From Bdellovibrionota bacterium FG-1 (GTDB lineage: Bacteria > Bdellovibrionota > UBA1018): a stretch of DNA of 42,590 bases. Below are positions 144 to 34,756 of the stretch, in pieces (the stretch's first letter is position 1; every line of letters begins with the position of its first letter). Location of the stretch: positions 1 to 42,590 of the forward strand of contig JBBCAW010000066.1 in the NCBI GenBank assembly GCA_051382295.1, in the 5' to 3' direction. Below the pieces are notes generated by a model that was given only the letters and a program-made list of their open reading frames with translations, was not told the origin of the DNA and ran no database searches. The translations under genes were made by a program, and so were the position numbers.

Positions 144-1030
144 TTAGGGTGCCTGTTTTTCTCCGAATGTGGATAAAGGGAATGCGGCAAGCTCGACATG
201 GTAGACGGAATCCGTCGATTGGTCGCCCGCCCCAAGTGCTTCAATCTTTTGGATGGTGTCTTGGAGAATCAAACACAATTGATCATATTTATCAGGAGAC
301 AATACAAAAGTATGGCCGAGCAAGAGGCGGTGCTTTGCTTTGACTTCGGCGATCGACGCTACTGCCAATGAAGGCATTTCCCGGTGAAACCGCCCAAGCG
401 CTAACCGGAAAACGCCACCGGAACATTGGATGAATTTTAAGGCTGGCTCCACTGTCCCGTCCTCATTTTTCCTGAAAAACCCCGCATTTTCCAGAAAAAT
501 GAGCGCTGCTTGAATTTCTTTTGGATCCGCCCGGAATCCGGCCAACGTTGACATTTCACGTATCGCCACATAGTACCAATGAGTTAAGTAGCGCCACGCC
601 TCATACTCATTCGGATTGGCCTTTCTAAATTCCGCAGAATTTTCCAGACGTTTCATGGCGGCGGCGCGGATATCTGAAGATTCAGTTTCAGAGATGGTAT
701 AAAGTGCCTCAACGAACTCTTCTTCCGTTCGAGGCAAGTCCATTTGTTGAAGTATTTTTTTATGAATAGAGTAATCGATTGAGTGGAACCTTCTCAATAT
801 CTTCACTAATCGGATCGGTTCGATTTGAATCTTTTGAGCAAATGTTTTCAGGGAGCCACCATTTTTGGCGTATGTCTTCATCCAAGAAAGGACAAAGTCA
901 CGGTAGTCGTGAAAGTGGTATGGATTTACTTTGGGTCCTGATTACCCGCGCGTAAAATGTCCTTCCAGAGAGCTTCTGCCTTGGTCTTGAGTTGGGCGAG
1001 AGCGATATTTGGTTCTTTTCCACTATTCAA
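144..1030 (-). pseudogene. TIGR02147-family protein (HTH + DUF4423), frameshifted copy (pseudogene or programmed -1 frameshift)
   Basis: ORF 144..881 has YLTHWYYVAIREM, FHREM and VYHVELAAFPL, matching paralog 1811..2692. Its conserved N-terminus (PKVNPYHFHDYRDFVLSW) continues in frame to about 935 with no start codon. A TTG at 1030 with a GGGGGG RBS opens a 34-codon ORF that stops at 926-928 and is joined by a -1 shift. Confidence 0.8.
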
Positions 1031-1075
1031 AGTGCACCCCCCAAAGACTTCATTTGATGTCGTATGAATCCATTA

Positions 1076-1795
1076 TTATTCAGCCTGGCCCACGTTAAGG
1101 GTTTGGATAGTATTGTCATCGAGTTCTACACCCTTTTGGGCCATAGCACTCACGATCGCTCCGAAAAGTAAGGTAATGGTCTGGCTCTTACCGGTGATCG
1201 TATAATTTGAAGCAAAGTTAAATTTGAAGGCCGTATTTTGAGTGATATCATGCACGCCTCCTCCTATGCCATTATCGAATTCCACGGCATAGTTGGCCCC
1301 CGCACACACGGCTGGGACCACGGCAAAAGTGATGTCAATTTCTGATATAATCGTTCCAGTGGGAATAGCGATGTTGCCGATGGTCATGGGCTGGGTGCTG
1401 GACGCGCTGAAACTTAAAAGTCCTCTACCCACTGATGGTTGAGTTGTTCCATTTATGCTCAGTTGTTTGCCGCTTCCATCCAGAAAGATCAAAGTATCAT
1501 TGCAAACATTGAATTTACCAAAGCTTGAGACTGTAGCAAACGCAGAGCGAGCTCCAAAAAATACCTCTTCGAGGCCAAACTCTGCGATCCTCAGCACTGA
1601 TTCCAGCCAATGGTGGGGACGATCGATTGAAGCGGCGCTCGATCCGGCCAGAGGCGCAGATTGAAGGGTTAAATTTTCTGAACTGGCTATATTACCTGGG
1701 TTGCCCGTGCCGGTTCCGCCACCGCAATGGATCAGGGCAATTGAAAGGAGGAGCGCAGCGGCTGAAAGATATTTTTTACAAATTTCCGTTATCAT
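1076..1795 (-). CDS. Putative lipoprotein, partner of TIGR02147 (paralog of 2739..3398)
   Basis: Signal peptide ending ALIHC followed by GGGTGTGNP. Shares CNDTL, GLLSFS, EIDIT and ITQNTAFKF with 2739..3398. Confidence 0.75.
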   Translation of the reverse strand: MITEICKKYLSAAALLLSIALIHCGGGTGTGNPGNIASSENLTLQSAPLAGSSAASIDRPHHWLESVLRIAEFGLEEVFFGARSAFATVSSFGKFNVCNDTLIFLDGSGKQLSINGTTQPSVGRGLLSFSASSTQPMTIGNIAIPTGTIISEIDITFAVVPAVCAGANYAVEFDNGIGGGVHDITQNTAFKFNFASNYTITGKSQTITLLFGAIVSAMAQKGVELDDNTIQTLNVGQAE

Positions 1796-1810
1796 ATTGG
1801 CAACCCCTCT

Positions 1811-2692
1811 TTACTTTTTATTGGATTCATTTTTTTTCAGCGCACACTTGGAGACCGGAAAAAAAGCAAGCTCGACATGGTAGATTTCGTCGCCGACTGA
1901 AGCCTCTTGACTGATCGCTCGAATCTCGTCGTAGGCGTTAAGCATAATCCTTTGGATCCGCTCAAAGCGAGAACTATCTACCGGGAGGGTGTAGCCTACA
2001 AGATTTCGTTTTTCAGGTGGGGTGGTGTCAATAGACTTTCCAGCTAACACCAACATTTCACGGTGAAACTGAATCAAGGCGGTTCGGTAGATACCCCCCA
2101 GACAATCCATAGGCTTGCTCGGCGGAGTCACGCTACCATCGGGCGCGGTTTCGATGAAGCCGTGGTCTATCAGAAACTTCAGCGCGACTTCGATCTCTCG
2201 CTGCGAGACGGATTCTTGAAGGCGATCCTGAATCCAAGAGGGATCTGGTTTGAAACCTGGCAATCCAGTCATTTCACGGATCACCACATAGTACCAGTGC
2301 GTGAGATAGCGAAAAACTTCGGTTTCTTTCTGGTTGCTGGAACGATAATCCTTGAAGCGGTTCATCCGTTCAAAGGCGGCGACACGTTCCTCTTGAATTG
2401 TAGCATTTCCTAAGAGAATCAGAGCCTCAAAATAATCTTGTTCTCGACGATTGAGTTTGAGCGCGGACGCCAGCTTGAGTGCGGTCTTGATGGAGAGATT
2501 GCGCTTTCCCGAAAGAATCATCGAAAGATTGCTGACCGAAAGACCGGAATGAAGGGCAAGTGAACGTAAGGAGTTTGAGGACTGGCGCGCTTTTGTGTAG
2601 GCGAGCCAGTCCCTTATAAACTCACGGTATTCGTGGTAGCCGAATATCTCAGGCCGAGAGGACTTTGGGGTTTTTCCGCTAGAGTTTGCCAT
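1811..2692 (-). CDS. TIGR02147-family protein (XRE-like HTH + DUF4423), intact
   Basis: IFGYHEYREFI, SLRSLA..SGLSVSNLSMILSGKRNLS (HTH), YLTHWYYVVIRE, FHREM, YHVELAFFP. ATG at 2692 chosen because 2758 overlaps the upstream gene. Confidence 0.88.
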   Translation of the reverse strand: MANSSGKTPKSSRPEIFGYHEYREFIRDWLAYTKARQSSNSLRSLALHSGLSVSNLSMILSGKRNLSIKTALKLASALKLNRREQDYFEALILLGNATIQEERVAAFERMNRFKDYRSSNQKETEVFRYLTHWYYVVIREMTGLPGFKPDPSWIQDRLQESVSQREIEVALKFLIDHGFIETAPDGSVTPPSKPMDCLGGIYRTALIQFHREMLVLAGKSIDTTPPEKRNLVGYTLPVDSSRFERIQRIMLNAYDEIRAISQEASVGDEIYHVELAFFPVSKCALKKNESNKK

Positions 2693-2738
2693 AAACGGCC
2701 ATTCTTTCGTCTTTTTACGGGTTGGTCCAGTGTTTGGC

Positions 2739-3398
2739 TTATTGTGCTTGGCCCGCACTGACTGTCTGGATTGTGGAATTACTTAGTCCAGCGCCCAGCG
2801 CAACCATTCCGTTCACAATTTGCCCTAAGAGCAAGGTGAGGTTTTGTGCGGAGCCAGTAATGGTCACCGGTGTTGAAAAGGTGAACTTGAATGCCGTATT
2901 TTGAGTGATATTGATCGGGCCTGAACCGGGGTCAAACTGAACTGCGTACGAAAAGCCCGGGCACAGCGTGGCGCTGATTGCAGAGGTGATGTCGATTTCC
3001 TTGATTTGCGTACCCGCCGCGACGTCCAAGTTTGCGAGCGTGGTATTGGAAGTGGACGCCGATGAAAAGCTCAGCAGGCCTAGCCCGGCTTGGTTGGTTG
3101 AACCATTGACCGCGACGGTATTGCCGTGAGTGTCGGTTAGAACTAAAGTGTCATTGCATATTTTGAGAGCACCAAAGGAGGAAACTGCGGCATAGGCTAC
3201 GCGTTCGCCGAGTAGAAATTCTAGAAGTCCTGAAGTCAACGAAGCCGCGCTGGCCCCGGCCAGGGGGGCTGCCAGGAGCGAAACCTTGCCAGCAGCAATG
3301 GGGGTCACGGCCGCGATTGGCGCCTTGCCGCAGCCTGTGGCGAGGATGATGGAAGCGGCGAAAGCGTGGGCCCAGTGGATTTGATGTTTGGGGGTCAT
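2739..3398 (-). CDS. Putative lipoprotein, partner of TIGR02147
   Basis: AGGAG RBS before ATG 3398, lipobox LATGC, clear paralogy to 1076..1795. Confidence 0.78.
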   Translation of the reverse strand: MTPKHQIHWAHAFAASIILATGCGKAPIAAVTPIAAGKVSLLAAPLAGASAASLTSGLLEFLLGERVAYAAVSSFGALKICNDTLVLTDTHGNTVAVNGSTNQAGLGLLSFSSASTSNTTLANLDVAAGTQIKEIDITSAISATLCPGFSYAVQFDPGSGPINITQNTAFKFTFSTPVTITGSAQNLTLLLGQIVNGMVALGAGLSNSTIQTVSAGQAQ

Positions 3399-3554
3399 GG
3401 TACTACTCCTTGTTTTGGTTACTGCGGGCCTAATGCCCATGTATTAAGAATGTGGCACCGCACTGGAAAAGTCAACTATATGTTCTCAATACGTGCGCTA
3501 AAAATTCATTTATCATAAAATCGACAATTATTTTAACCAGTTACAAGATTTAAT

Positions 3555-3674: not shown

Positions 3675-5609
3675 ATGCCTAAACTCTCTGGCTTGAGCCT
3701 GAAGCATCATCTTCGATGTATTTTGAGTGAATTGAAGGATCGAAAAAGCATTTTTGGTCTCCCTCAAAGTAAGTTTTTTCTCGGACATGAAGGACTCGAT
3801 TTTTCGGTCCAGTTTCATACGAGGCGCCCTTTTACGCCCCTGGGTCCGGCTGCGGGCCCTCACACTCAGATGGCCCAGAACGTTGTGCTTGCCTACCTGG
3901 GGGGCGCCCGGGTTTTTGAACTGAAAACCGTGCAGATTCTCGATGAGCTCGAGCTTCCTCGGCCCTGCATCGATGCGAGAAATATTTGCTTCAACGTGGA
4001 ATGGTCCCAAGAGCTGAAACTAGAAGAATCACAGGATGAATACTTCAAAGCCTGGATTCTGCTGAAGTTGGTCGAAGAGCTCGAGCTTTTGGGTAAACCG
4101 AAAGGTGATCCGTTTTATGAGTTCGCCTTTGATCTTTCGGCGGGCTACGACTTCAAGGGGATTTCGAGCCCGAAAATGAGTTCTTGGCTTCGCAGTTTTC
4201 AAGAGCCGCAGGAACTTCTCGGTAAGATGATTGGGGAGATTTCCGGGGAGTTTCCACAAGCCCGAAATTTGAATTTGGCCGGGTCGATTTCAGACTCTCT
4301 CACGCTTTCTACGTTTCACGGTTGTCCCAAGGATGAAATTGAAACGATCGTCCGCTATCTCATCCACGAGCAGGGCTTGCACGTCGTCGTGAAAATGAAC
4401 CCCACTTTGCTGGGCTACGAATGTGTTCGAAAAACACTCTTGGAAGACCTCGGTTATCATCAGCTCAAACTCGATGAAAAGGCTTTTCAAGGCGATCTTT
4501 CGTTTGCGGATGCGGTTCCAATGATGAAGCGATTGCAGAAGTTCGCCCAAGAGCGGGGTCGAAACTTCGGAGCTAAGTTTTCAAACACCCTCGTCGTTCA
4601 GAATCATGACAAGGTTTTCTCCGATCGCGTGATGTATCTTTCGGGAGCACCGCTCCATGTGCTGGCGATGAACACCATGCAGCGTTTTAGCGCGGAGATG
4701 GATCCGGGTTTTCATATTTCCTTTTCGGCTGGGATTGACCGCGATAATTTCGCCGACGCGGTCTTATGCGGCATGAAGCCGGTCACGACCTGTACGGATT
4801 TATTGAAGGAAGGGGGCTATGGCCGCCTCAGCGCGTATCTGGACCACCTCGCCGCCGAGATGAAGGCGGTGGGCGCCCATTCCATCGCGAGTTTTATCGC
4901 AAACAAGGGTGGAAACCCTCACGAGATCGTCTCGCGGTTGGTGACGAATCCAAAATACCATTTCAGCCAAAACAGCGGACTTCCGAAGGCTTCTGAGGCG
5001 CGGCTTCAATTCTTTGATTGCATCACTTGCAATGTCTGTATTCCAGTTTGCCCCAATGCGGCGAATTTCTGGATCAGTGCTGGCAAGACTTCTGAGGGGG
5101 TCACTGATTTTGAATTCAAATCGGGCAAGTTCCATCCTGTTCAAAGTGAATCCTTAACGTTGGTTCGGCCCAGGCAGATCGCTCATCTCGCGGAATTTTG
5201 CAATGAATGCGGAAACTGCGAAACCTTTTGCCCCGAGGATGGGGCACCCTACCAGGTCAAACCTCGATTTTTTCTTTCTGAAATGAGTTATCGGGCTACT
5301 CCCGCGTTGGATGGGTTTTGCCTTCAAAGCCCCTGGGAGATGAGAGGTCGACTTGCGGGGCAGGAATATCGGCTCAAAACTGACGCCATCGCAGAAGAGT
5401 TTCTTTTTGAAAACTCTCGTTTTCGGTTGGTTTTGCAAAATGACGGAAGTTTGGTGCAAGGCGAAGCAATCGACGACGACGCGAAGGATTCTGCCGAGCG
5501 GTTGAATATGCGCCCCTTCTACGTCATGAAGGTGTTGCTCGCCGGGCTGCATAAAACTCCAGAAAATTTTGCAAAAGTGCTTTTAGTCGGTCCAAAGGAA
5601 AATCCATGA
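3675..5609 (+). CDS. ygfK: YgfK-like oxidoreductase, short form (N-terminal flavin TIM-barrel + C-terminal 2x[4Fe-4S])
   Basis: YgfK-type motifs TPLGPAAGPHTQMAQN, ELKTVQILDEL..PRPCID, FNVEWSQEL, TLSTFHGCPKDEIE, VKMNPTLLG, YLSG. C-terminal CITCNVCIPVCPN and CNECGNCETFCP. 644 aa with no central Rossmann GxGxxG module. Confidence 0.82.
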   Translation: MPKLSGLSLKHHLRCILSELKDRKSIFGLPQSKFFLGHEGLDFSVQFHTRRPFTPLGPAAGPHTQMAQNVVLAYLGGARVFELKTVQILDELELPRPCIDARNICFNVEWSQELKLEESQDEYFKAWILLKLVEELELLGKPKGDPFYEFAFDLSAGYDFKGISSPKMSSWLRSFQEPQELLGKMIGEISGEFPQARNLNLAGSISDSLTLSTFHGCPKDEIETIVRYLIHEQGLHVVVKMNPTLLGYECVRKTLLEDLGYHQLKLDEKAFQGDLSFADAVPMMKRLQKFAQERGRNFGAKFSNTLVVQNHDKVFSDRVMYLSGAPLHVLAMNTMQRFSAEMDPGFHISFSAGIDRDNFADAVLCGMKPVTTCTDLLKEGGYGRLSAYLDHLAAEMKAVGAHSIASFIANKGGNPHEIVSRLVTNPKYHFSQNSGLPKASEARLQFFDCITCNVCIPVCPNAANFWISAGKTSEGVTDFEFKSGKFHPVQSESLTLVRPRQIAHLAEFCNECGNCETFCPEDGAPYQVKPRFFLSEMSYRATPALDGFCLQSPWEMRGRLAGQEYRLKTDAIAEEFLFENSRFRLVLQNDGSLVQGEAIDDDAKDSAERLNMRPFYVMKVLLAGLHKTPENFAKVLLVGPKENP

Positions 5610-7975
5610 AACCCACGCGAATCGCCTTCAACCCCTACAACGAAAAAAAGCCAAATTACTCTGAAAATTTTCTAGCGGATGACTCGCTTCCCTTTCATCG
5701 TTCGCTGGAGGGTTACGGTCGAACCCCTTTGCGCGAATTGCCAGCTCTGGCCAAGGAACTGGGAGTGGGAAGGATTTTGGTCAAAGACGAGGCTCACCGT
5801 TTTCAACTCAACGCCTTTAAGGGGCTGGGTGCGGCTTACGCCATTTATCGTTTCATCAAGCAGAAATGGGAGGAGAAGTTTAAGTCACCTTTCAATTTTG
5901 AACTTTTCAGTGGAACCGACGCGATTCAGAAATTGGGCACGTTTACGTTTGCGTCGGCTACCGACGGCAACCATGGCCGGGCTGTGGCCTGGACCGCAAG
6001 AAAACTGGGACAGAAGGCCGTGATTTTTATGCCTTCCAATACGGTAAAAGCCCGTATCGAGGCGATCCGTCGCGAAAATACCGAGGTCGTGATAGTTCAG
6101 GGCACGTACGACGACACCGTTAAGCGCGCTGCTGAAGAGGGAAAGCGCAACGGTTGGCAGATTATTTCAGATACGGCGTATGAGGGGTACACCGAAATTC
6201 CTCGTTGGATTATGACCGGATACACTACGATTTTTCGTGAAATCGACGAGGAGCTAGAGGGTTCTCATTTACCCTCACCTGACGTAGTGATTGTTCAAGC
6301 GGGAGTGGGCGGCTTGCTTTGTGCAGCGGCTGACTATTACGTTAGAACCATGGGCGAAAAGCGTCCCAAGCTGGTTTGCGCAGAACCCCTCGATGCGGAT
6401 TGTCTGCTCGAATCAATTATCTCCAAGAATGGCGCGATCGCTTTGGCGAAGGGGGGGCAGAACTCGATCATGGCCGGCCTCAACTGTGGAACACCCTCGC
6501 TGCTTGCCTGGCCCGTGATTCAAAAGTCCGTACATTCCTTTGTCGCGGTCGATGACGACTGGGCTAGATGTGCGATGAAAACTTTTTATCATCCACGAGG
6601 CAATGATCCTAAAATCACCTCAGGTGAATCCGGAGCGGCCGGTCTTGCGGTTTTGCTCGCTCTTTGCGGTGAAAGTGACTTAGCGGCTGCCAAGACCAGG
6701 CTTGGGCTAAACGAGCAATCGACCGTGTTGTTGATTAACTCTGAGGGTGATACCGATCCGGAGAGTTTTAAAGCGATTATCACGACCTTAGGCTCCGAAG
6801 CGGAGAAATATCGCGGGGACTGTGCGCAGTTTTTGCGGGAACTGGTTGCGATTCCGAGTCTCAGTACGCAAGAAGAAAACGTCGCTGCGCGAATCGTGCG
6901 GGAGATGAAAAAGCTGGGTTTTGATGAGGCCTGGACCGATGACTACGGAAATGTGATTGGCCGAGTTGGCAAAGGCCCGATACGCATCGTGTTTGATGGT
7001 CACATCGATACGGTGGGAATCGGGAATCGGAGTTCGTGGTCCTATGATCCCTTTCAGGGGAAAATAGAAAATGGCTACATTTATGGCCGAGGCGCTTCTG
7101 ATAATAAAGCCGCAAACGCCGTTCAGGTCTATGGTGCCGCACTTTTTAAGAAGTTGGGCAAACAGCTCGATGAGGTTTCAGTTTACGTCGTGGGCTCCGT
7201 GCAAGAAGAGGACTGCGATGGCCTGGGGCTGAAATACGCGCTCGAGAAATCCATCGGAAACGTGGACTTTGTTTGCCTGGGCGAGGCCACTGAACTTGCT
7301 ATTTATCGTGGACACCGGGGACGAGTGGAGATCGAGGTGAGTGCTCGCGGCGTTTCTTGTCATGCTTCCGCGCCGGAACGGGGACAAAATGCTATTTATC
7401 GGATGATGAAGTTGGTGGCCGACATCGAAAATCTGCACGCGAATCTTGCGCCCGATCATTTTCTTGGCAAGGGCTCAGCAGCTGTGACCCATATTCGGTG
7501 CGAAACTCCGAGTCTTTGTGCGGTTCCGGACTCTTGCACGATTCACATCGACCGGCGCATTATTCCGGGTGAGACCCGCGAATTTGTTATGAAACAGATT
7601 CAGGCACTTCCGGAATTTGATCCTCAGTCCATGGAAGTCAAGATCCTCAACTACGACGTGCCTTCTTATAAAAAGATGAGTCTCGAGACCGAAAAATATT
7701 ATCCAAGCTGGGTTTTGCCGCAGGACCATCCCTTGACCCAGGCCGGGATAGCGGCTGCGGCCGAAGTGCTGGGCCGGAAGCCAGAAATCAGCAGATGGGT
7801 TTTTAGCACCAACGGGGTATCCAGCATGGGCTTGCTGCAGATCCCCACCATTGGTTTTGGTCCGGGGCAAGAAGAGGACGCTCATACCACGAACGATCGC
7901 GTGAGAATCGAGGACCTTGTGACCTCGGTGGCGTTTTACGCGGCACTCCCTGGCCAGATTGCATCAAGAAGGTAA
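5606..7975 (+). CDS. dpaL-ygeY: Fusion of diaminopropionate ammonia-lyase (DpaL/YgeX) and YgeY-family M20 amidohydrolase
   Basis: About aa 1-392: KDEAHRFQLNAFKGLG (PLP Lys), ATDGNHGRAVAW, QAGVG, SIMAGLNCG, SGESGAAG, EGDTDP. About aa 393-789: DGHIDTV, GRGASDNK, VQEEDCDG, IYRGHRGR, WVFSTNGV, GFGPGQEEDAH. ATGA overlap with the upstream gene. Confidence 0.92.
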   Translation: MKPTRIAFNPYNEKKPNYSENFLADDSLPFHRSLEGYGRTPLRELPALAKELGVGRILVKDEAHRFQLNAFKGLGAAYAIYRFIKQKWEEKFKSPFNFELFSGTDAIQKLGTFTFASATDGNHGRAVAWTARKLGQKAVIFMPSNTVKARIEAIRRENTEVVIVQGTYDDTVKRAAEEGKRNGWQIISDTAYEGYTEIPRWIMTGYTTIFREIDEELEGSHLPSPDVVIVQAGVGGLLCAAADYYVRTMGEKRPKLVCAEPLDADCLLESIISKNGAIALAKGGQNSIMAGLNCGTPSLLAWPVIQKSVHSFVAVDDDWARCAMKTFYHPRGNDPKITSGESGAAGLAVLLALCGESDLAAAKTRLGLNEQSTVLLINSEGDTDPESFKAIITTLGSEAEKYRGDCAQFLRELVAIPSLSTQEENVAARIVREMKKLGFDEAWTDDYGNVIGRVGKGPIRIVFDGHIDTVGIGNRSSWSYDPFQGKIENGYIYGRGASDNKAANAVQVYGAALFKKLGKQLDEVSVYVVGSVQEEDCDGLGLKYALEKSIGNVDFVCLGEATELAIYRGHRGRVEIEVSARGVSCHASAPERGQNAIYRMMKLVADIENLHANLAPDHFLGKGSAAVTHIRCETPSLCAVPDSCTIHIDRRIIPGETREFVMKQIQALPEFDPQSMEVKILNYDVPSYKKMSLETEKYYPSWVLPQDHPLTQAGIAAAAEVLGRKPEISRWVFSTNGVSSMGLLQIPTIGFGPGQEEDAHTTNDRVRIEDLVTSVAFYAALPGQIASRR

Positions 7976-7979
7976 TGTG

Positions 7980-10616
7980 ATGGAATTCAGTTTAAACGGA
8001 AAAAAACAAGGTTTTGTTGGGGATCCTGAGCTTTCATTGTTTTCCTATTTACGGAAACATGCAGGACTCATCAGCCCTAAGGATGGCTGTAGCGGCGAGG
8101 GGGTTTGTGGTGCTTGCTCAGTGCAAGTGGACGGCAAGCCGATTTTTTCGTGCGTTCCGAAAATGAAGACCATGGCGGGTAAGTCGATTGTCACTCTTGA
8201 GGGCATCGAACCCAAGCGTCGTGAAGCCTATGCGGAGGCGTTTACAAAGGCGGGTGGAATCCAATGCGGATTTTGTACACCCGGGATCGTGGCCCAAGCG
8301 GATGCGCTTTTGAATCGCAACGCGGATCCGACTCGCCAAGAAGTCGTCAATACCGTGAACCGCAATATTTGTCGCTGTACAGGCTATCATAAAGTGGTGG
8401 ATTCAGTTTTGCTCGCGGCTCAGCTCATTCGTGATGGAAAGAGTACGTCTGAGATTTCCGCGACACTCGGTCAAGTGGGTGGACGCTATCCCAAGTATGA
8501 TTCGCGCTTGGCCGTCTTGGGTGAGCGTCCGTTTGTGTGTGATTTGAAGATGCCGGGAATGCTTTATGGCGTATTGAAATTTAGTGATCACCCTCGCGCT
8601 CGGATTCTGTCGATTGATACTTCTGTGGCAGTCAACGTCCCGGGAGTGACCCGGGTTTTTACCGCAAAAGATATTCCAGGGGCGCGCAAGATCGGCTTAA
8701 TTATTCCGGACTGGCCGCTCATGGTAGGCGAAGGTGAGATCACGGGCTACATTGGCGACGTTCTTGCGTTGGTTGTGGCATCGTCAGAGGAGATCGCGCG
8801 CGAGGCTGCGAGCAAACTTGGGGTGAAGTACGAGGTCTTGACGCCCTTGACGGATCCTTTCGAAGCGATGAAACCCGAGAGTCCGAAGGTTCACGAGCAG
8901 CGCCCCGAGTATGGTAAAGGAAGGGGCAATATTCTTTCGCTTTCGGAAGTCAAACGCGGCGACGTGGAGAAGGTCATTCAGGAATCAGCGTTTGTTGCCC
9001 AAGGTCGTTATACGACCCAGAGAATTGAGCACGCCTTTCTTGAGATGGAATGCTGTGTCGCTGAACCCATTTCGAAAAATGCCGAAAATGCGGAAGGCGT
9101 TCGGGTCTATTCGCAGGGACAGGGCGCATACGAAGATCGCAAGCAAATTGCAAAAATTTTAGGCCTGGCCGAAAAAGACGTGAATGTCATTCAGGTCCAA
9201 AATGGCGGCGCGTTTGGCGGAAAAGAGGACCTGACCGTACAAGGTCACGCCGCGCTGGGCGCTTTTCTTTTGAAGCAACCCGTGCGCGTGGCACTGACGC
9301 GTGGCGAGTCGATTCGCATGCATCCGAAGCGGCATCCTTTTGTGATGGATTATGTCTTGGGTTGCGATCGAAACGGGCGTCTGACCGTACTTAAGGCTGA
9401 AATCGTCGGTGATTCAGGGGCCTATGCGTCCGTCGGAATGAAAGTGGTGGAGCGCGGAGTGGGTCATGCTTCAGGCGCGTATTTTGTGCCCAATTTTCAG
9501 GTCAGCGGCACGGCGGTTTACACGAACAATGTTCCTTGCGGCGCGATGCGCGGTTTTGGTGTGAACCAAACCGCCTTTGCGATGGAGAGCTGCATGGATG
9601 AACTTTGTGAAAAAGGGGGCTTTGATCGTTGGCAGTTTCGTTTCGATAACGTGATCAAAAAGGGAGATCGTACTTCGACTGGCCAGATCATTCGCGACGG
9701 CGCGGGTTTACAAGAAACGCTGCTCGCGGTTCGCGATGACTTTTACAAGGCCAAGTACGCGGGGCTCGCGTGTGGAATCAAAAACACCGGCATTGGCAAC
9801 GGTATGCCCGATGTCGGTGAGGTCATGATCGAGTTTTTGGCGCCAAGTGATCCACCAAATCTGGCCAAGCCGGTTCGCGTCGTCATTCACCACGGTTGGA
9901 CTGAAATGGGTCAGGGCGTACATACCATGGCCATTCAGTCGTTGTGTGAAGAGACGGGCCTGGATCCTTCGTGGATGGAGGTGCGGGTCGATACTTCGTA
10001 TGAAACGGTTTGCGGCATGACCACGTCCTCTCGGGCGACCTCGTTGGTGGGTAATTCGATCATCCAAGCCGCTAAGGCATTACGTGAGGATCTCAAGGCG
10101 CATTCGGTTCAGGAGTTGATCGGACGACGTTATCCCGGTAAATGGATTTGTGATTGGACGACAAAGCCGGGCACAGGCGCAAAGGAAGAAATCACGCATT
10201 ACTCGTATAGCTACGCAACGCAGCTTGTGGTTCTGGATGAAGGCGGAAAAATCGATACCCTCTTTGCGGCTCATGATGCCGGCAAGATTATGAACCCGAC
10301 CCTTTTTGAGGGACAGATCGAGGGTGCCATTCATATGGGGCTTGGCTACGCCTTGACTGAAAATCTACCGATGGAAGGGGGTTTTCCGCTTTCGTTGAAG
10401 CTGAAAGATTGTGGCATTCTTAAAGCGAAAGGCTTGCCCAAGATCGTGGTTCGTGGTGTTGAGGTCAAGGATTCAGTCGGCCCGTATGGGGTCAAGGGTG
10501 TGGGCGAAATCGGTTTAGTTCCAACCGCTGCGGCGGTGGCCAATGCTTTTTATCAGTTTGACAAGAAACGGCGCTATAGTCTGCCGCTCTATAATGCAGA
10601 AGGGGAATTAAAATGA
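7980..10616 (+). CDS. xdh: Selenium-dependent xanthine dehydrogenase-family molybdenum hydroxylase (2x[2Fe-2S] + Moco domains in one chain)
   Basis: GCSGEGVCGAC, QCGFCTPG, NICRCTGY, GGAFGGKED, GAMRGFG, GIKNTGIGNG, EMGQG, GQIEG, KGVGEIG. No FAD domain. Start could be 7959, 7977 or 7980. Confidence 0.88.
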   Translation: MEFSLNGKKQGFVGDPELSLFSYLRKHAGLISPKDGCSGEGVCGACSVQVDGKPIFSCVPKMKTMAGKSIVTLEGIEPKRREAYAEAFTKAGGIQCGFCTPGIVAQADALLNRNADPTRQEVVNTVNRNICRCTGYHKVVDSVLLAAQLIRDGKSTSEISATLGQVGGRYPKYDSRLAVLGERPFVCDLKMPGMLYGVLKFSDHPRARILSIDTSVAVNVPGVTRVFTAKDIPGARKIGLIIPDWPLMVGEGEITGYIGDVLALVVASSEEIAREAASKLGVKYEVLTPLTDPFEAMKPESPKVHEQRPEYGKGRGNILSLSEVKRGDVEKVIQESAFVAQGRYTTQRIEHAFLEMECCVAEPISKNAENAEGVRVYSQGQGAYEDRKQIAKILGLAEKDVNVIQVQNGGAFGGKEDLTVQGHAALGAFLLKQPVRVALTRGESIRMHPKRHPFVMDYVLGCDRNGRLTVLKAEIVGDSGAYASVGMKVVERGVGHASGAYFVPNFQVSGTAVYTNNVPCGAMRGFGVNQTAFAMESCMDELCEKGGFDRWQFRFDNVIKKGDRTSTGQIIRDGAGLQETLLAVRDDFYKAKYAGLACGIKNTGIGNGMPDVGEVMIEFLAPSDPPNLAKPVRVVIHHGWTEMGQGVHTMAIQSLCEETGLDPSWMEVRVDTSYETVCGMTTSSRATSLVGNSIIQAAKALREDLKAHSVQELIGRRYPGKWICDWTTKPGTGAKEEITHYSYSYATQLVVLDEGGKIDTLFAAHDAGKIMNPTLFEGQIEGAIHMGLGYALTENLPMEGGFPLSLKLKDCGILKAKGLPKIVVRGVEVKDSVGPYGVKGVGEIGLVPTAAAVANAFYQFDKKRRYSLPLYNAEGELK

Positions 10617-11479
10617 CGAAAGTAAAAGTCGGAGTCATTCAGTGTTCAAACGCGCTTTCAAAAGGCTCGATCGAGGAGATCAAGACCGCCATGATCGAGA
10701 AGCATCTTAAGCTCATCGCGCAAGCGGCGGAGAAGGGTGTGCAAATTTTGGGGTTGCAGGAGATTTTTAATGGGCCGTATTTCTGCGCCACTGAAGATAA
10801 AGAATGGTATGCAGCGGCTGAAGGGGTTCCGGACGGGCCTACGGTAAAGATCATTCAGCAGCAGGCCAAAAAATACAATATGGTCATCGTGGCTCCGGTT
10901 TACGAAAAAGAGCAGCGCGGGGTATATTACAACACGGCGCCGGTGATTGATGCGGATGGAAGTTATCTCGGAAAGTACCGAAAAATTCACATTCCTCAAG
11001 GTTCGAGCTTTTGCGAAAAGTACTATTTTAAGCCCGGAAATTTAGGGTTTCCGGTTTTCAAAACCAAGTACGCGACGATTGGCGCCTATATTTGTTACGA
11101 TCGCCATTTTCCAGAGGGTGCCCGCGCGCTGGCACTGCGGGGGGCGGAGATTATTTTCAATCCTTCGGCCACGATCAAGTCCACCAGCCAATACATGTGG
11201 AAAATTGAACAGCCGGGGCTGGCCTGCGCCAACGGCGTCTACGTTGCGACAATTAACCGTCATGGTTGGGAAGAGCCTTGGCGGCACGGTGAATTTTACG
11301 GAACGAGCTATATCGTTGACCCCAAAGGCCGCATCATTGCGGAAGGCTCTGAAGATCGGGATGAAGTCGTGGTCGCGGAATGTGACCTGGATCTGATCGA
11401 TGAGGTTCGGCACAACTATCAATTTTTCAGAGATCGTCGGCCAGATGCCTACGGTGATCTCGTTGATCCCAAATTTTGA
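10613..11479 (+). CDS. Nitrilase-superfamily N-carbamoyl amidohydrolase (beta-ureidopropionase-like)
   Basis: Catalytic triad motifs QEIFNGPYFC (Glu), YRKIHIP (Lys), ICYDRHFPE (Cys); C-terminal FFRDRRPDAY. ATGA overlap with xdh. Confidence 0.88.
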   Translation: MTKVKVGVIQCSNALSKGSIEEIKTAMIEKHLKLIAQAAEKGVQILGLQEIFNGPYFCATEDKEWYAAAEGVPDGPTVKIIQQQAKKYNMVIVAPVYEKEQRGVYYNTAPVIDADGSYLGKYRKIHIPQGSSFCEKYYFKPGNLGFPVFKTKYATIGAYICYDRHFPEGARALALRGAEIIFNPSATIKSTSQYMWKIEQPGLACANGVYVATINRHGWEEPWRHGEFYGTSYIVDPKGRIIAEGSEDRDEVVVAECDLDLIDEVRHNYQFFRDRRPDAYGDLVDPKF

Positions 11480-11489
11480 TGGGCGCTCA

Positions 11490-12860
11490 ATGACTTCAGC
11501 AACGGAAATTCTGCTGATCAAAAATGCGACGGTCATCACGTGGGGTGGCCCCCAGTCGACGGGGCCGCGTTTTCGTGTGTTGAAAAATCATTCGATCATC
11601 GTTATGGGGGGAAAGATCAAGTCGATTCGACCCTCGGAAGCCCAGGCCGATGGTATGGATGCCCAGCAGGCCGCTACGGTGATCGATGGGACGGCAAAAG
11701 TGGTTCTTCCGGGGTTAATCAACGCGCACATGCATTTTTACAGCACCTTTGCGCGGGGACTCACAAAGGCGGCGCCCTCCAAGAACTTTTTAGAGGTTTT
11801 GAACCATCTGTGGTGGCGGCTGGATCGAAAACTCACGATCGAGGATGGTTATTTCAGCGCGCTCGTGGCGAGCATGGATGCGATCAAACACGGGACGACT
11901 CTCTTGGTGGATCACCATGCGAGTCCTTTTGCAGTTCGGGGATCGCTCTCGGCCATAGCCAGGGCAGTGCGAGAGGCTGGGGTAAGGGCATCGCTTTGTT
12001 ACGAGGTGTCTGACCGTGATGGGGATGAGGTGGCGCAACAGGGGATCGACGAGAATCTTGAGTTTATCGAGTCCACGCGCCAAACCGGGGATGGATATCT
12101 TCGAGCCCTTTTTGGACTTCATGCCTCATTTACGTTGTCTGACAAGACTTTAAAAAAAGTGGCCTACGCAACAAAGGACGTGAAACCAGGATTTCACATT
12201 CACGTGGCCGAAGATCTTTCGGATCAGGTCGATGCGCAGGCAAAGTTCGGTTTGATGGTGGTTGAACGATTAGATAACTTTGGTTTTCTTGGACCGGATA
12301 CGATCTGCGCACATGGCGTGCATCTGGATGATGCGGAAGTGGAGCTTCTGCGGAAGACGCGTACCATTGTCGTGCACAATCCTCAATCCAACATGAACAA
12401 CGCGGTCGGCGCGGCAGATCTTTTAAAGCTAACGAAGAATGGCGTTTTGGTGGGGCTCGGAACTGATGCCATGACCACGAACATGCTTGAAGAACTTCGT
12501 GCGGCGATTTGGCTCCAAAGGCATCATCATGGAAATCCAAGCGCGGGATTTGTGGAAGCCGTCGAGGCCCTGATTTTCGGGAATAGCCAGATTGCCACTC
12601 GTTACTGGGGCGTGGAAGCGGGAGGTCTTTTTACGGGGTCTCACGCGGATCTCGCGCTGTTGGATTATGATCCCCCGACCGAGTTAAACGAGGAGAGTTT
12701 TTACGGTCATCTCGTTTTTGGAATATCTCAAGCGTCGGTGGATACGACGATTTGTGACGGGCGAGTGCTCATGCAAGGTAAAAAGCTCCTGCATCTCGAC
12801 GAACAACAGATCATGAAAGAGGCGCGTGCGCTCTCTAAAAAACTTTGGGAAAGATTTTAG
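11490..12860 (+). CDS. ssnA: SsnA amidohydrolase
   Basis: PGLINAHMHFYSTFARG, LWWRLD, DHHASP, LCYEVSDRDG, GLHASFTLSD, HIHVAE, HNPQSNMNNAVG, GLGTD. ATG at 11490 just after the nitrilase stop. Confidence 0.9.
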   Translation: MTSATEILLIKNATVITWGGPQSTGPRFRVLKNHSIIVMGGKIKSIRPSEAQADGMDAQQAATVIDGTAKVVLPGLINAHMHFYSTFARGLTKAAPSKNFLEVLNHLWWRLDRKLTIEDGYFSALVASMDAIKHGTTLLVDHHASPFAVRGSLSAIARAVREAGVRASLCYEVSDRDGDEVAQQGIDENLEFIESTRQTGDGYLRALFGLHASFTLSDKTLKKVAYATKDVKPGFHIHVAEDLSDQVDAQAKFGLMVVERLDNFGFLGPDTICAHGVHLDDAEVELLRKTRTIVVHNPQSNMNNAVGAADLLKLTKNGVLVGLGTDAMTTNMLEELRAAIWLQRHHHGNPSAGFVEAVEALIFGNSQIATRYWGVEAGGLFTGSHADLALLDYDPPTELNEESFYGHLVFGISQASVDTTICDGRVLMQGKKLLHLDEQQIMKEARALSKKLWERF

Positions 12861-13001: not shown

Positions 13002-13481
13002 TTGTTTGTGAAAATCGGCTCACGAGGAAGACCTTTGATTGGAATTCGGCGGAAAGCGCGCATCTGTCTGAGCGTCGACCCCCTAGTGATTTCGGAATTG
13101 AAGGCCCGCGCTGTCGCAGAGAAAGCGAGTGTGAGTGAGCTAGCCTATCGCCTAATCAAGCAGGGGCTTCAGCCCCGGCAAAAAATTCAAATTTCTATCC
13201 CTTCAAAATCAGTCGCTGAGTTTTGTCAGAGCCATGGGATCAAAACACTCGGCGTTTTTGGATCCGCTTTGACGGAACGTTTCAATCAAGAGAGTGACGT
13301 CGATCTTTTGGTTGAGTTTAAAGAGGGCAAAGTGCCGGGGTTTTTCCAGATTGTGCAGATGGAGGAGGAGCTAGCGACAATTTTTGGTGGAAGAAAGATC
13401 GATCTGAGAACTTTTTTTGACTTGAGCCAATATTTCCGTGAGCGAGTCAAGAGCGAGGCTGAAGCGATTTATGCCGCGTGA
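13002..13481 (+). CDS. mntA: MntA-type minimal nucleotidyltransferase antitoxin with N-terminal RHH-like domain
   Basis: FGS-x10-DVD motif (FGSALTERFNQESDVDLL), LATIFGGRKIDL. N-terminal RGRP...ICLSVDPLVISELKARA...SVSELAYRLI has an RHH/CopG pattern. GGAGG RBS. Confidence 0.85.
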   Translation: MFVKIGSRGRPLIGIRRKARICLSVDPLVISELKARAVAEKASVSELAYRLIKQGLQPRQKIQISIPSKSVAEFCQSHGIKTLGVFGSALTERFNQESDVDLLVEFKEGKVPGFFQIVQMEEELATIFGGRKIDLRTFFDLSQYFRERVKSEAEAIYAA

Positions 13482-13521
13482 CCAATGAGCTAAGAAAGCG
13501 GGGAATGAGGATACTGTCAGG

Positions 13522-13881
13522 TTGTGCCATATTTTGGATGCTATTGAAGAGTCGCTCTCGTTTGTGCGCGGAAAAAGTCGCCGTTCGTTGGACGAGAATC
13601 GAATGTTGTCCTTGGCCCTCATTCGCGAAATCGAAGTCATTGGCGAGGCGGCGTCCAGGGTTTCTGATGAAATTAAAAATTCCCATTCAGAAATCCCTTG
13701 GGGTGCGATCATCGGAACAAGAAATCGTCTGATTCACGGATATTTTGATGTCGATTTGGATATCGTTTGGGCAACGGTCAAGACGGATTTGCCCGCTTTA
13801 GGTAAGCAATTGAAGCCTTTGCTTAAAAGAAAGAAATTTCAAATTCCATTAAGGTATGGGAACTCCGGAAAAATCCGCTGA
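13522..13881 (+). CDS. hepT: HepT/DUF86 HEPN ribonuclease toxin
   Basis: IEVIGEAA, EIPW, RNRLIHGY (RxxxxH HEPN motif + Tyr), VDLDIVW. Start uncertain because the in-frame ATG at 13471 is followed by TGA at 13486. Confidence 0.82.
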   Translation: MCHILDAIEESLSFVRGKSRRSLDENRMLSLALIREIEVIGEAASRVSDEIKNSHSEIPWGAIIGTRNRLIHGYFDVDLDIVWATVKTDLPALGKQLKPLLKRKKFQIPLRYGNSGKIR

Positions 13882-28701: not shown

Positions 28702-29268
28702 ATGTTCCGTTTCGTGCTTTTAGGTAGTTTTTTCATTGGACTGCTGTGTCCTTTATTTCTTTCTGCTGCCCCCGTGTTTATTCAGGATATCAACGGGAAA
28801 GAAATTCAGCTTCATGAACGCCCACTGCCACCCTCCTATAACGAATGTCAGTATTGCCATTTCAAGAGGAATCTTCAGTTCATCCGAGGCAAGAAGAAAC
28901 TCACCTTGAATCATACGGATAAATCCTTGATGCATGGGCGCAGCGAGATGTCCTGCAACAACTGTCACGACATTAATCATAACAATTACCTACGGACTAC
29001 CTTGGGGCACCAGGCCAGCTTTGAGAACTCCTCGCCCATTTGCCAGCGTTGCCACGCGGATCGATACCGAAATTGGCTGGGGGGAAACCATGGCAAGCGG
29101 CTGGGTTATTGGAATGGAGCTAAGATTCAGTTTCAGTGTATCGACTGCCACGATCCCCACTCCGTAAAGTTTAAAAAAATGCAGGCTGCGCCGGGCCCTG
29201 TCATTCCAAGGACCGCGATTATTAAAAAGCACGAAGAAAATCACGAAGAAGGTAAAGCGCATGATTAA
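28702..29268 (+). CDS. Periplasmic tetraheme cytochrome c
   Basis: Signal peptide; four CxxCH motifs (CQYCH, CNNCH, CQRCH, CIDCH); W.GG.HGKR.GYWNG. Confidence 0.9.
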   Translation: MFRFVLLGSFFIGLLCPLFLSAAPVFIQDINGKEIQLHERPLPPSYNECQYCHFKRNLQFIRGKKKLTLNHTDKSLMHGRSEMSCNNCHDINHNNYLRTTLGHQASFENSSPICQRCHADRYRNWLGGNHGKRLGYWNGAKIQFQCIDCHDPHSVKFKKMQAAPGPVIPRTAIIKKHEENHEEGKAHD

Positions 29269-30475
29269 GGATTATCTAATATTTTGGGGCTCCATGATCA
29301 AAGAGGCCGTGGTTGGTCCCCCTCGTTATTACGTCTGGCTCGCTTTTCTTTTTCTGATTTTTTCTACCGGCGTGTACTTCTATATTGACCAGGCCATGTA
29401 TGGGTTAATGGTCACCAATATGAGCAACCAGGTCAGCTGGGGCGCCTATATCGCGAATTTCACATTTCTCGTCGGCGTGGCCGCAGCGGCGGTGTTGTTG
29501 ATTGTTCCTTCTTACCTTCATAAGAGCAAAGAACTCAAAGAGGTGGTGCTGTTCGGCGAGTTGCTTGCCCTCTCGGCCATTTTGATGTGCCTGCTTTTTA
29601 TTATGGCTGACCTCGGGCACCCCGAGCGCTTCATGCACTTTACGAAGATCAACTTTCCGCGCTCGATCTTGGCTTGGGACGTGATCGTACTCAACGGCTA
29701 TCTGGTTTTGAATCTTTTCATTCCCACTTACCTGCTTTTTAAAATGTATAAAGGTGAGGAGCCGAATAAGGCGATTTACCTTCCTTTCGTGTTCCTTTCG
29801 ATTGCCTGGGCGGTCAGTATTCACACCGTGACCGCGTTTCTCTACGCCGGTTTGGGTGGACGCCCCTACTGGAACTCCGCCATTCTGGCTCCGCGTTTTC
29901 TGATTAGCGCGTTCGCGGGTGGGCCTGCCATTTTGATGATGATTTTCAAGGCGATCAGTCGCTTCGCGAAATTTACGCCCAAGCCTAAGGTGTTTGAGAC
30001 ATTGACGACCGTCATGACGTACACCTTGCTCACGAACATGTTTCTGTTCGCTTGTGAAATTTATAAGGAGTTTTATACCGACAGCGTCCACGCGGCTTCT
30101 GCTCAGTATTTGCTCTTTGGTTTGTATGGCAAGGGAATGCTACGTCCCTACATCTGGGCAGCATTGATTATGGAAGCGATCTCGGCCGTCATTTTGCTTT
30201 TGCCGAAACTTAGGGCTGACTGGAGGCTGATGTATGTGGCTTGCGTCTTTACGGTCCTGGGTATCTGGATTGAAAAAGGCATGGGTCTGATCATTCCTGG
30301 TTTTATCCCCACCCCGCTTGGAAATTTGGTGGAGTACACGCCTTCTTTACACGAGTTTTTCATCTGTCTCGGAATTTGGGCGTTTGGCGGCATGACTTAT
30401 ACCGTTCTGGCCAAAATCTGCGTCGCTATTCAAACAGGTAAGCTGAGGCATCAGGGATCGAGACCGGAGTCATGA
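29261..30475 (+). CDS. NrfD/PsrC (DsrP/CbcU-like) quinol-interacting membrane subunit
   Basis: VSWGAYIANFTFLVGVAAAAV, ADLGHPER, SIHTVTAFL, APRFLISAF, WIEKGMGLIIPGF; about 10 TM segments. Confidence 0.88.
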   Translation: MIKDYLIFWGSMIKEAVVGPPRYYVWLAFLFLIFSTGVYFYIDQAMYGLMVTNMSNQVSWGAYIANFTFLVGVAAAAVLLIVPSYLHKSKELKEVVLFGELLALSAILMCLLFIMADLGHPERFMHFTKINFPRSILAWDVIVLNGYLVLNLFIPTYLLFKMYKGEEPNKAIYLPFVFLSIAWAVSIHTVTAFLYAGLGGRPYWNSAILAPRFLISAFAGGPAILMMIFKAISRFAKFTPKPKVFETLTTVMTYTLLTNMFLFACEIYKEFYTDSVHAASAQYLLFGLYGKGMLRPYIWAALIMEAISAVILLLPKLRADWRLMYVACVFTVLGIWIEKGMGLIIPGFIPTPLGNLVEYTPSLHEFFICLGIWAFGGMTYTVLAKICVAIQTGKLRHQGSRPES

Positions 30476-31041
30476 GGAGACCCATGAGGAGACTCATGAT
30501 GCGAGTCTTGATGGCGGTTTTATTTCTGGTGTTTTCGGGTCCAGCGCGGTCTGCTGAGATCGCGCATTCTGCCGAGACCACACACACCTATAAAGTAGCC
30601 CCGCGAATTCCGGAGCTGAAGTCATTCCCGTGCGAAAAATGTCATAAGGGCTTCAAGCTCGGCGTTTTAGCGGGCGCAGTGGATTATCCGCACAAAGGGC
30701 TTCCACTGCATCACATGGAAGAGCTGCGTAAATGCACCTTTTGTCATAGCAGCCGGAACCCGAACTTCCTGAACCTTCTGGACGGAGAGTTGGTCAGTTA
30801 CGACGAAAGTTACAAAGTTTGTCAGCAGTGCCATGGTCCCACCGCCTACAATTGGTCGCGTGGAATGCATGGTCGTCTGACCGGGCAGTGGAATGGCGAG
30901 CGCACGATCTATGTCTGCGTGACTTGTCACCAAGCGCACGATCCTAAATTTAAACCCATGGCCCCGGCGGTCGCACCGTTTATGCCGGAAAGAGTGATCA
31001 TTAAAGGAGAACACGATGGCGGACTCCACTCGCACGAATAA
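30472..31041 (+). CDS. Periplasmic tetraheme cytochrome c (paralog of 28702..29268)
   Basis: Signal peptide; CEKCH, CTFCH, CQQCH, CVTCH; W.RG.HGR..GQWNG. Confidence 0.9.
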   Translation: MRRPMRRLMMRVLMAVLFLVFSGPARSAEIAHSAETTHTYKVAPRIPELKSFPCEKCHKGFKLGVLAGAVDYPHKGLPLHHMEELRKCTFCHSSRNPNFLNLLDGELVSYDESYKVCQQCHGPTAYNWSRGMHGRLTGQWNGERTIYVCVTCHQAHDPKFKPMAPAVAPFMPERVIIKGEHDGGLHSHE

Positions 31042-31987: not shown

Positions 31988-31999
31988 TAAGCCCCGATC

Positions 32000-32365: not shown

Positions 32366-32393
32366 AAGTGTCGACCGCGAGCCAAGGGCTGTC

Positions 32394-34649: not shown

Positions 34650-34730
34650 AGGACTCCTTGCGAGGTCTTAATGCGGAATAGAACCGCCCGTAAAATGGTT
34701 GAATTCTATTGTTACACCCGCCTTCTTGTT

Positions 34731-34756
34731 AATTAAAGAAAAAACTTTCTTTAATT
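34731..34756. promoter_or_regulatory. Perfect palindromic operator between qNor and Rrf2
   Basis: AATTAAAGAAA-AAAC-TTTCTTTAATT (11-4-11 perfect inverted repeat). Confidence 0.7.

Follow-up and report, generated by a model that had tools for sequence, protein, structure and literature searches.

How could a bacterium break down urate without oxygen when neither YgeW nor carbamate kinase can be found in its genome? The question is raised by five genes on a contig of Bdellovibrionota bacterium FG-1 (GenBank assembly GCA_051382295.1, contig JBBCAW010000066.1, positions 1 to 42,590), the whole 42,590 nucleotides of which we call the window; it is the entire contig C66 of a 4.44-Mb genome (G000) that is 97.7% complete and 5.0% contaminated. 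The five open reading frames (ORFs) lie tightly packed on the plus strand and encode, in order, a short form of YgfK, a DpaL-YgeY fusion, a molybdenum hydroxylase (Xdh), a nitrilase and SsnA. For the reductive urate/2,8-dioxopurine pathway, worked out in gut bacteria in 2025, E. coli and C. sporogenes use XdhD-YgfM or XdhAC, YgfK, SsnA, HyuA, YgeW, YqeA, YgeY and YgeX (Li et al., PMC12507026; Liu et al., bioRxiv 10.1101/2025.04.24.650524). Of the five genes here, four are over a curated profile cut-off or align with a family of that pathway. From its gene content we propose that the operon could serve oxygen-independent urate breakdown by the 2,8-dioxopurine route, with a remodelled beta-ureidopropionase replacing YgeW and carbamate kinase, a reading to which we give an even chance of being right. 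That the nitrilase carries out one of the two ureido hydrolyses of the pathway we consider highly probable.

An earlier note on this DNA had described five co-oriented genes with ATGA overlaps or gaps of 10 nt or less, and both coordinates and junctions are reproduced here: ORF1 and ORF2, like ORF3 and ORF4, overlap by ATGA, and gaps of 4 and 10 nt separate ORF2 from ORF3 and ORF4 from ORF5. It had seen a variant of the 2,8-dioxopurine pathway in which YgfK is short, DpaL is fused to YgeY and a nitrilase is present. That description stands, and in the genome check that it had called for, the profiles for ygeW (TIGR03316) and carbamate kinase (TIGR00746) found no match in the genome, whose sole OTCace domain adjoins a dihydroorotase-like gene. 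The host lineage is also as it had surmised, since the named organisms among the 120 best RecA relatives are labelled Bdellovibrionota, Bdellovibrionales, Bdellovibrio sp. or Oligoflexia, with two exceptions, a label that conflicts and one that reads only "bacterium". Ranked by tetranucleotide distance among 414 segments of the genome, the operon falls at the 68th percentile, an ordinary composition that gives no sign of a mis-binned or recently foreign contig. A scan for promoters and terminators returned counts at chance level (7 vs 7.7 and 13 vs 13.2).

A putative remodelled beta-ureidopropionase

The nitrilase, ORF4 (10613..11479, 288 aa), is a CN-hydrolase that scores below all equivalog cut-offs; family calls throughout are NCBIfam/PRK/TIGR profile scores set against curated cut-offs, with Pfam used for domains. 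Like PydC and the animal beta-ureidopropionases (2vhh, 6ftq, 8pt4), it keeps the catalytic Glu/Lys/Glu/Cys set (E50, K124, E135 and C161) and CYDRH and NPSAT motifs that align with those of the animal enzyme, and it is 60-68% identical to bacterial PydC proteins encoded with pyd genes. Among its 80 nearest metagenome relatives, 72 adjoin pyd genes and none lies with ssnA or ygfK; a homologue of 58-64% identity sits among pyd genes in all 24 same-order genomes that have one, and five weaker same-order matches (38-42%) have no pyd neighbours. The window protein departs from the family at 20 of 135 conserved columns, compared with a mean of 2.3 and a maximum of 11 for 127 background rows, which themselves define the columns and so favour a low background mean. 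In the tree it joins 13 database proteins (68-91% identity) in a clade of 14 rows with 100/100 support and a stem of 0.45, from which analysis P0147, a duplicated-looking ordinary member, was omitted. These comparisons indicate that the nitrilase descends from PydC beta-ureidopropionases yet forms a separate clade, and it differs from PydC also in its changed pocket positions and in having ssnA, xdh and ygfK as neighbours instead of pyd genes.

The changes that mark the clade are fixed or nearly fixed in it, namely E61, G130-S131, the loss of W134, K189-S190-T191 and Y269. The acidic gain Q61E occurs in 14 of 14 rows, and the family-invariant residues Q61, W134, G190, L191 and W269 are all changed in the window protein. 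By alignment, S190 and Y269 occupy the positions of MtCPA Glu187 and Trp277*, both of which shape the substrate pocket of that enzyme (PMC4812014), and F133 and E135 match human F205 and E207 by spacing, with the changed W134 lying between them. Human F205 has been proposed to exclude ligands bearing a second polar group (PMC10741476), and such a group is a feature of both 2,3-diureidopropionate and albizziin. We predict from the sequence that the nitrilase is a putative 3-ureido hydrolase acting in place of YgeW and carbamate kinase.

Three other identities were considered and rejected. A decaying gene would not have its changes fixed across 14 rows; a D-carbamoylase identity is opposed by scores of ~100 bits to solved D-carbamoylases, vs 350-400 for a true D-carbamoylase from locus L056, and by the lack of a CNDRRW motif; and for AguB the TIGR03381 score is 257.5 vs 410.25, with S190 at the amine-binding Glu187 position.

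Conserved linkage of the nitrilase clade

A search of 238 genomes from a different class of the phylum found the same clade in four of them. The gene order is ygfK(short)-dpaL-ygeY-xdh-ssnA-nitrilase in G877, where a hydantoinase faces the operon, ygfK-ygeY-xdh-ssnA-nitrilase in G869, and ygfK-xdh-ssnA-nitrilase in G868 and G871. A synteny search had been suggested in the earlier note, and the linkage is kept in 4/4 other genomes found with this clade; with the window included, the clade nitrilase has a short-ygfK/xdh/ssnA context in 5/5 genomes. All four other carriers hold ygeY, and G869 and G877 have no ygeW match. Another assembly also has a clade nitrilase and a homologue of the fusion, each on a contig of 30,468 bp, probably one and the same contig.

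No other clade nitrilase was found in 400 genomes of the phylum, on plasmids (best match 58.7%) or in 80 metagenome loci (best match 67%). A search of 351 genomes of the phylum of G390 gave two nitrilase matches, of which the one translated has ordinary PydC residues, and the ESM Atlas returned generic nitrilase clusters only. The lineage had been taken as new for this catabolism, which was overstated: of 301 genomes of the phylum, 8 contain an ssnA cluster, in most cases together with canonical ygeW, and both ygeW and ygeY are present in nine of nine phylum relatives that have an ssnA match, none of them with a clade-type nitrilase.

The short YgfK and its electron donor

ORF1 (3675..5609, 644 aa), the predicted 2,8-dioxopurine reductase, matches the YgfK profile TIGR03315 in part, its score of 443 falling short of the full-length cut-off of 835. 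A BLAST alignment with E. coli YgfK covers residues 17-405 and 898-998 only, the ferredoxin plus FAD/NADPH module of the E. coli protein (residues ~406-897) being missing, and a search for a GxGxxG motif found none. What is left is a flavin mononucleotide (FMN)-barrel domain, a dicluster of two [4Fe-4S] clusters and a C-terminal beta domain. The CxxCxxCxxxC motifs begin at 449 and 509, and their cysteines (C449, C452, C455, C459, C509, C512, C515 and C519) are invariant across 66 rows. The protein is collinear with PreA of the same genome (hhalign 96%, E 3.4e-9). An AlphaFold2 model built from 66 sequences reached a predicted local distance difference test (pLDDT) score of 93.8, with dihydropyrimidine dehydrogenase and dihydroorotate dehydrogenase as best PDB matches, and it was used in place of a single-sequence fold that reached only 32.8; a PDB search by sequence gave no match. 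The modelled fold of the short YgfK resembles that of the FMN/Fe-S half of dihydropyrimidine dehydrogenase.

Because it lacks an NAD(P)H module, the short YgfK likely draws its electrons from reduced ferredoxin, by analogy with the ferredoxin-dependent PydAc of Clostridium chromiireducens (PMC7332683) and with XdhAC, which does not use NAD(P)H (Liu et al., bioRxiv 10.1101/2025.04.24.650524). Like PydAc and PreA it has an FMN barrel and an Fe-S dicluster and lacks an FAD/NAD(P)H domain; it differs from them in its YgfK-family sequence, its extra C-terminal beta domain and its purine context. The genome encodes a pyruvate:ferredoxin oxidoreductase (1785.8 vs 911), an NfnAB-like fusion, a 2-oxoacid:ferredoxin oxidoreductase with a small ferredoxin, and a formate dehydrogenase. 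The fusion is the C26 protein, which we take to be NfnAB-like, and with it, the pyruvate:ferredoxin oxidoreductase and small ferredoxins present, low-potential electrons would be available. At L271:1801-6414 (G000:C133) a pyruvate:ferredoxin oxidoreductase is followed by a dihydroorotate dehydrogenase-like protein (PRK07565).

The short form was earlier listed as a change of this variant; it is real, but widespread elsewhere. Of the best 80 short-YgfK loci in named genomes, four have the FAD motif, 65 are complete at 560-720 aa without it, and the remaining 11 are cut by a contig end or atypical. They span KSB1, Acidobacteriota, Acidimicrobiia, Myxococcota, Alphaproteobacteria and others, most with ssnA, xdh or ygeW/ygeY nearby. 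An assembly artefact was rejected, the short form recurring in so many genomes. In the class of the host itself it was found in 2 of 127 genomes, G000 and, on a short contig of 2,157 bp, G318. There (G318:C304) the ATGA overlap of ygfK with dpaL recurs at 91% DNA identity, yet G318 has a separate ygeW/ygeY/PreT-PreA set of its own, and since the short contig is possibly mis-binned this genome was left out of the carrier count.

Whole-genome searches covered 50 of the 80 loci, mostly drafts of unknown completeness and many of them kin. A ygeW-like match (E <= 1e-25; three over the cut-off) was found in 27 of the 50, and a ygeY-like match in 21 (11 over the cut-off), all among those 27. A D-carbamoylase was found in 14, all among the 23 genomes with neither match, and a nitrilase of the beta-ureidopropionase type stands alongside in 7 of 15 D-carbamoylase loci. 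Five such copies placed in the tree are nested in an Acidimicrobiia-like PydC clade and have His, not Leu, at position 191, a nesting that implies recruitment independent of the window nitrilase; D-carbamoylase and beta-ureidopropionase thus appear by sequence to form an independent alpha-plus-beta hydrolase pairing.

Several other arrangements were seen among these clusters. At locus L227 (G361:C838) two PydC-type nitrilases are encoded in tandem. The second resembles the purine-linked copies in having His at 191, and the genome has a short ygfK and no ygeW, ygeY or D-carbamoylase match. Many ssnA/short-ygfK clusters have no dpaL (L062:6725-8227, L109:9557-11011, L109:11054-12343 and others), and CysK-like (33 loci) and ThrC-like (up to 27 loci) pyridoxal phosphate (PLP) proteins in them are possible substitutes for the diaminopropionate lyase. 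Loci L048, L053, L076 and L087 have two carbamoyltransferases per cluster, with carbamate kinase in the locus in three of the four; the three such genomes tested have no ygeY match, and both ureido groups may be phosphorolysed there. Six alphaproteobacterial clusters without ygeW or ygeY (L060, L070, L072, L073, L075 and L080) encode an amidohydrolase of ~548 aa (weak PRK09061), mostly beside an M20 carbamoylase. Other fusions of pathway proteins are a short YgfK-YgeW of 848 aa and a DpaL-Xdh of 1199 aa (L046 ~9900-12500 and P0023), and same-family relatives (L100:12228-14750, L102:11948-14482, L294 and L296) have a PreT-PreA fusion of ~840 aa beside xdh in place of YgfK.

Xdh and the selenium question

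ORF3 (7980..10616, 878 aa from its ATG) is an XdhAC-type molybdenum hydroxylase that passes TIGR03311 (886.8 vs 830.45). Its Pfam domains (Fer2, Fer2_2, Ald_Xan_dh_C and MoCoBD_1/2) correspond to two [2Fe-2S] clusters and a molybdenum cofactor, with no FAD domain, and its GGKE, ERG, MRGFG and GVGEIG motifs are common to 34 homologues from related loci. It is predicted to be the enzyme that would reduce urate to 2,8-dioxopurine. The DOPDH signature comprises F1009V and A1078T/S; the TTSSR motif of this Xdh would fit A1078T under the bovine xanthine oxidoreductase numbering assumed here, and F1009V could not be placed.

The operon had been called selenium-linked, a label that the genome does not support. 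Profiles for yqeB (TIGR03309) and yqeC (TIGR03172) found no match in the genome, the controls matching in E. coli, and selD (339.6 vs 125) is directly beside mnmH (283.1 vs 219.75), the selenouridine synthase gene, with no selA found. In gut strains with the pathway YqeBC and SelD are always present, and the DOPDH of a selD mutant is inactive (Liu et al., bioRxiv 10.1101/2025.04.24.650524). In the lineages searched here, yqeB passes its cut-off in 2 of the 50 short-YgfK genomes, and in none of five and none of nine genomes in two further sets. The genome has molybdenum cofactor synthesis genes (moaA, moaC/B and xdhC over the cut-off; moeA and moaE present), and the check for mocA found a MocA-like gene next to that of a second molybdenum hydroxylase. 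We infer a sulfido rather than a seleno molybdenum cofactor in Xdh, although the absence of yqeB is no proof.

The fusion protein, SsnA and genes possibly supplied in trans

In the fused protein of ORF2 (5606..7975, 789 aa), residues ~1-394 are a PLP diaminopropionate ammonia-lyase and residues ~395-789 an M20 YgeY ureido hydrolase. Both halves are over a cut-off (PRK08206, 445.7 vs 276; PRK13004, 500 vs 321), and the protein is below that of TIGR03528 (393.9 vs 532.25). The DpaL half retains K77, D120, H123, Y168 and D189 of E. coli YgeX, residues that we presume to be catalytic. A fusion in the same order is found in P0002, P0281 and P0282, and nine other fused database proteins have the reverse domain order. 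An assembly artefact was rejected here too, P0282 being a full-length 780-aa homologue (82% identity) from another assembly and the ygfK/dpaL overlap recurring on G318:C304. The adjacent, unfused dpaL and ygeY of G877 would explain how the fusion arose. One well-supported group unites the YgeY sequences of G000, G869 and G877 with three from other clusters, the subgrouping of the first three being unsupported (0.07).

ORF5 (11490..12860, 456 aa) passes both SsnA profiles (PRK07203, 525.7 vs 444; TIGR03314, 500.3 vs 455.5) and retains the metal motifs HxH, H, HxH, H and D of E. coli SsnA. The earlier note had seen no hyuA, selD, yqeB/C or transporter in the window. This is true of the contig, on which queries with E. 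coli hyuA, yqeB, yqeC and uacT/xanQ/ghxQ and with the selD family had no match, and not of the genome, which holds selD and a HyuA-type enzyme elsewhere. The latter, found in the hyuA check but inside a pyd operon, is a dihydropyrimidinase on contig C71 (TIGR02033, 610.5 vs 393; 43% identical to E. coli HyuA) in the order mmsA-hydA-aminotransferase-preT-preA (L108, G000:C71:2806-13638), so that the hydantoinase step could be supplied in trans. This pyd operon has no PydC at the slot where relatives carry it. Two M20 hydantoinase/carbamoylase-family genes were found, one near the C71 pyd operon on the opposite strand and a copy of it, with 83% identity, on a contig of 2.5 kb (L274, C151) that is possible contamination. 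Neither uricase nor D-carbamoylase was found in the genome, nor, with one query, a UacY-like protein.

Hypothetical pathway

In the pathway that we put forward, urate would be reduced by Xdh to 2,8-dioxopurine, the purine ring of which would be reduced by the short YgfK, likely with reduced ferredoxin, and the reduced ring would then be opened by SsnA to ureidomethyl-hydantoin. The C71 dihydropyrimidinase would convert the hydantoin to 2,3-diureidopropionate, the nitrilase would hydrolyse the 3-ureido group and the YgeY half of the fusion the 2-ureido group, and the DpaL half would release pyruvate and ammonia from 2,3-diaminopropionate. The net reaction would be urate plus four electrons to pyruvate, four NH3 and two CO2, with no ATP from carbamoyl phosphate, and pyruvate:ferredoxin oxidoreductase could give back two of the four electrons. 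The nitrilase step, the electron donor and the use of the pyd hydantoinase are our own additions, inferred from the genome, and the remaining steps, from urate reduction to hydantoin opening and the YgeY and DpaL reactions, are taken by analogy from what is published for homologues only. The fullest form of the proposal, a selenium-independent, ferredoxin-driven and wholly hydrolytic pathway in environmental Bdellovibrionota with a hitherto undescribed nitrilase subfamily, derived from beta-ureidopropionase, as its dedicated 2,3-diureidopropionate 3-ureidohydrolase, is tentative, and on balance we doubt that all of it will hold.

The order of the two ureido cleavages is, with the electron donor of the first enzyme, listed as open in a 2025 commentary (PMC12990295). 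Liu et al. (bioRxiv 10.1101/2025.04.24.650524) assign 3-ureido cleavage to YgeW and 2-ureido cleavage to YgeY, so that the order we propose requires just one new activity, 3-ureido hydrolysis. In the text of Li et al. (PMC12507026), E. coli YgeY and YgeX degrade albizziin and it is the 2-ureido group that YgeW and UacY cut. YgeY may therefore accept either isomer, and its pairing with the nitrilase leaves the regiochemistry unfixed and room for two other readings. YgeY might cut the 2-ureido group first to give albizziin, from which the nitrilase would remove the 3-ureido group to form 2,3-diaminopropionate; the fixed Q61E would suit a cationic alpha-amino group, and retention of the nitrilase beside ygeW-ygeY in G868 and G871 would fit albizziin salvage. 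We consider this order unlikely, as it requires YgeY to act on a diureido compound and treats position 61 as pocket-lining by assumption only, and in Liu et al. YgeY follows YgeW, each mutant accumulating its own intermediate. The other reading is that the nitrilase has switched to alpha-specificity like a D-carbamoylase, cutting the 2-ureido group to give albizziin for YgeY, the order of Li et al. D-carbamoylases are of the same superfamily and occur in 14 of the 50 short-YgfK genomes, the pocket is remodelled, and E. coli YgeY accepts albizziin; but the window protein keeps CYDRH and 60-68% identity to pyd-operon PydC, vs ~25% and a CNDRRW motif for D-carbamoylases, and in Acidimicrobiia-like genomes a beta-ureidopropionase copy adjoins the D-carbamoylase, which implies distinct jobs for the two. 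A switch of this kind seems to us distinctly improbable.

We give little credence to two further explanations, in about equal measure. The nitrilase could be the pyrimidine beta-ureidopropionase of the cell, relocated to a shared nucleobase operon, with the M20 carbamoylase near the pyd operon doing the YgeW step or the purine route ending early; PydC is indeed gone from the pyd operon of the genome, close homologues are beside pyd genes in 24 of 24 same-order genomes, and two M20 hydantoinase/carbamoylase-family genes (C71 and C151) are present. Against this, the nitrilase lies outside the PydC clade of its relatives, with many more column departures (20, against a background maximum of 11), its pocket changes are fixed clade-wide, and 4/4 other carriers have it beside ssnA with one hydantoinase as the only pyd gene. 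Alternatively, the operon could act on another N-heterocycle or entry compound (for example 8-oxopurines or xanthine), its Xdh could be selenium-dependent through an unrecognised maturation route, or it could be inactive. The universal YqeBC and SelD of the gut strains, with the inactive selD-mutant DOPDH (Liu et al.), would agree with this, given that yqeB and yqeC were not found here while selD is present, as would the F1009V signature that could not be placed; but SsnA, YgeY and DpaL are over their cut-offs and are encoded with xdh and ygfK, as they are in the pathway already described, the genes are intact, and yqeB is generally missing from these lineages (over its cut-off in 2/50, 0/5 and 0/9).

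Our preferred reading, urate breakdown with the nitrilase replacing YgeW and carbamate kinase, must also be set against several observations, beginning with the albizziin results of Li et al. G868 and G871 keep the nitrilase despite a canonical ygeW-ygeY-arcC on other contigs, which means that it is not a strict YgeW replacement, and with PydC missing from the pyd operon it may serve pyrimidines as well. The four other carriers represent only two genera of one family, most of the D-carbamoylase carriers are closely related to one another, and gene context is visible for only a minority of the 13 other proteins in the clade. Xdh is just 25-27% identical to E. coli XdhD/XdhA, and the search for UacT/XanQ-type urate transporters turned up nothing but a GhxQ-like permease.

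Relation to known pathways

The operon shares with the pathway of E. coli and C. sporogenes the co-encoded XdhAC-architecture hydroxylase, YgfK-family reductase, SsnA, YgeY and diaminopropionate lyase, with a HyuA-type enzyme in the genome. It differs from it in having no ygeW or carbamate kinase, a YgfK without the FAD/NADPH module, a fused DpaL-YgeY, the hydantoinase in a separate operon, no yqeB or yqeC found, and the nitrilase. It thus lacks YgeW with the kinase, a full YgfK and YqeBC, all three of which define the E. coli/C. sporogenes form. Closer in logic is the C. difficile variant (PMC12507026), which likewise has a ring reductase without an FAD domain and a hydrolytic, non-ATP-forming replacement for YgeW. 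There the two are UacX, a PydA homologue (PF01180), and UacY, a D-aminoacylase (PF07969), and here a truncated YgfK and a nitrilase. The hydrolytic version put forward in the earlier note was overstated in that UacY is a published precedent for replacing YgeW by a hydrolase. Our literature search found no report of a nitrilase in the 2,8-dioxopurine pathway or of Bdellovibrionota carriers, and the available text of Li et al. (PMC12507026) makes no mention of nitrilase, carbamoylase or Bdellovibrio.

The pathway is already known, which limits the surprise. A hydrolase of known beta-ureido ancestry paired with YgeY offers a clean enzymatic test of the cleavage order and a route to one regioisomer, and if our assignment is right YgeY would be the 2-ureido enzyme. 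Should Xdh function with sulfur in the absence of yqeB, the pathway would not be tied to selenium and the requirement seen in gut anaerobes would not be general to TIGR03311 enzymes, which bears on the natural range of the pathway and on its transfer to urate-lowering probiotics. The short YgfK, common in many phyla, is a small and tractable form of the ring reductase.

Neighbouring genes

Upstream of the operon, divergent genes (144-3440) form a pair repeated twice, an unknown secreted-looking protein followed by a TIGR02147/DUF4423 protein; the secreted-looking proteins (233 and 239 aa) resemble each other by eye. Directly downstream (13002-13881), an MntA-like nucleotidyltransferase and a HepT-like RNase probably form a toxin-antitoxin pair. 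Further along (28702-35245), a cytochrome c/NrfD/Fe-S module precedes the genes for a quinol-type nitric oxide reductase and an Rrf2 regulator, a set consistent with low-oxygen metabolism.

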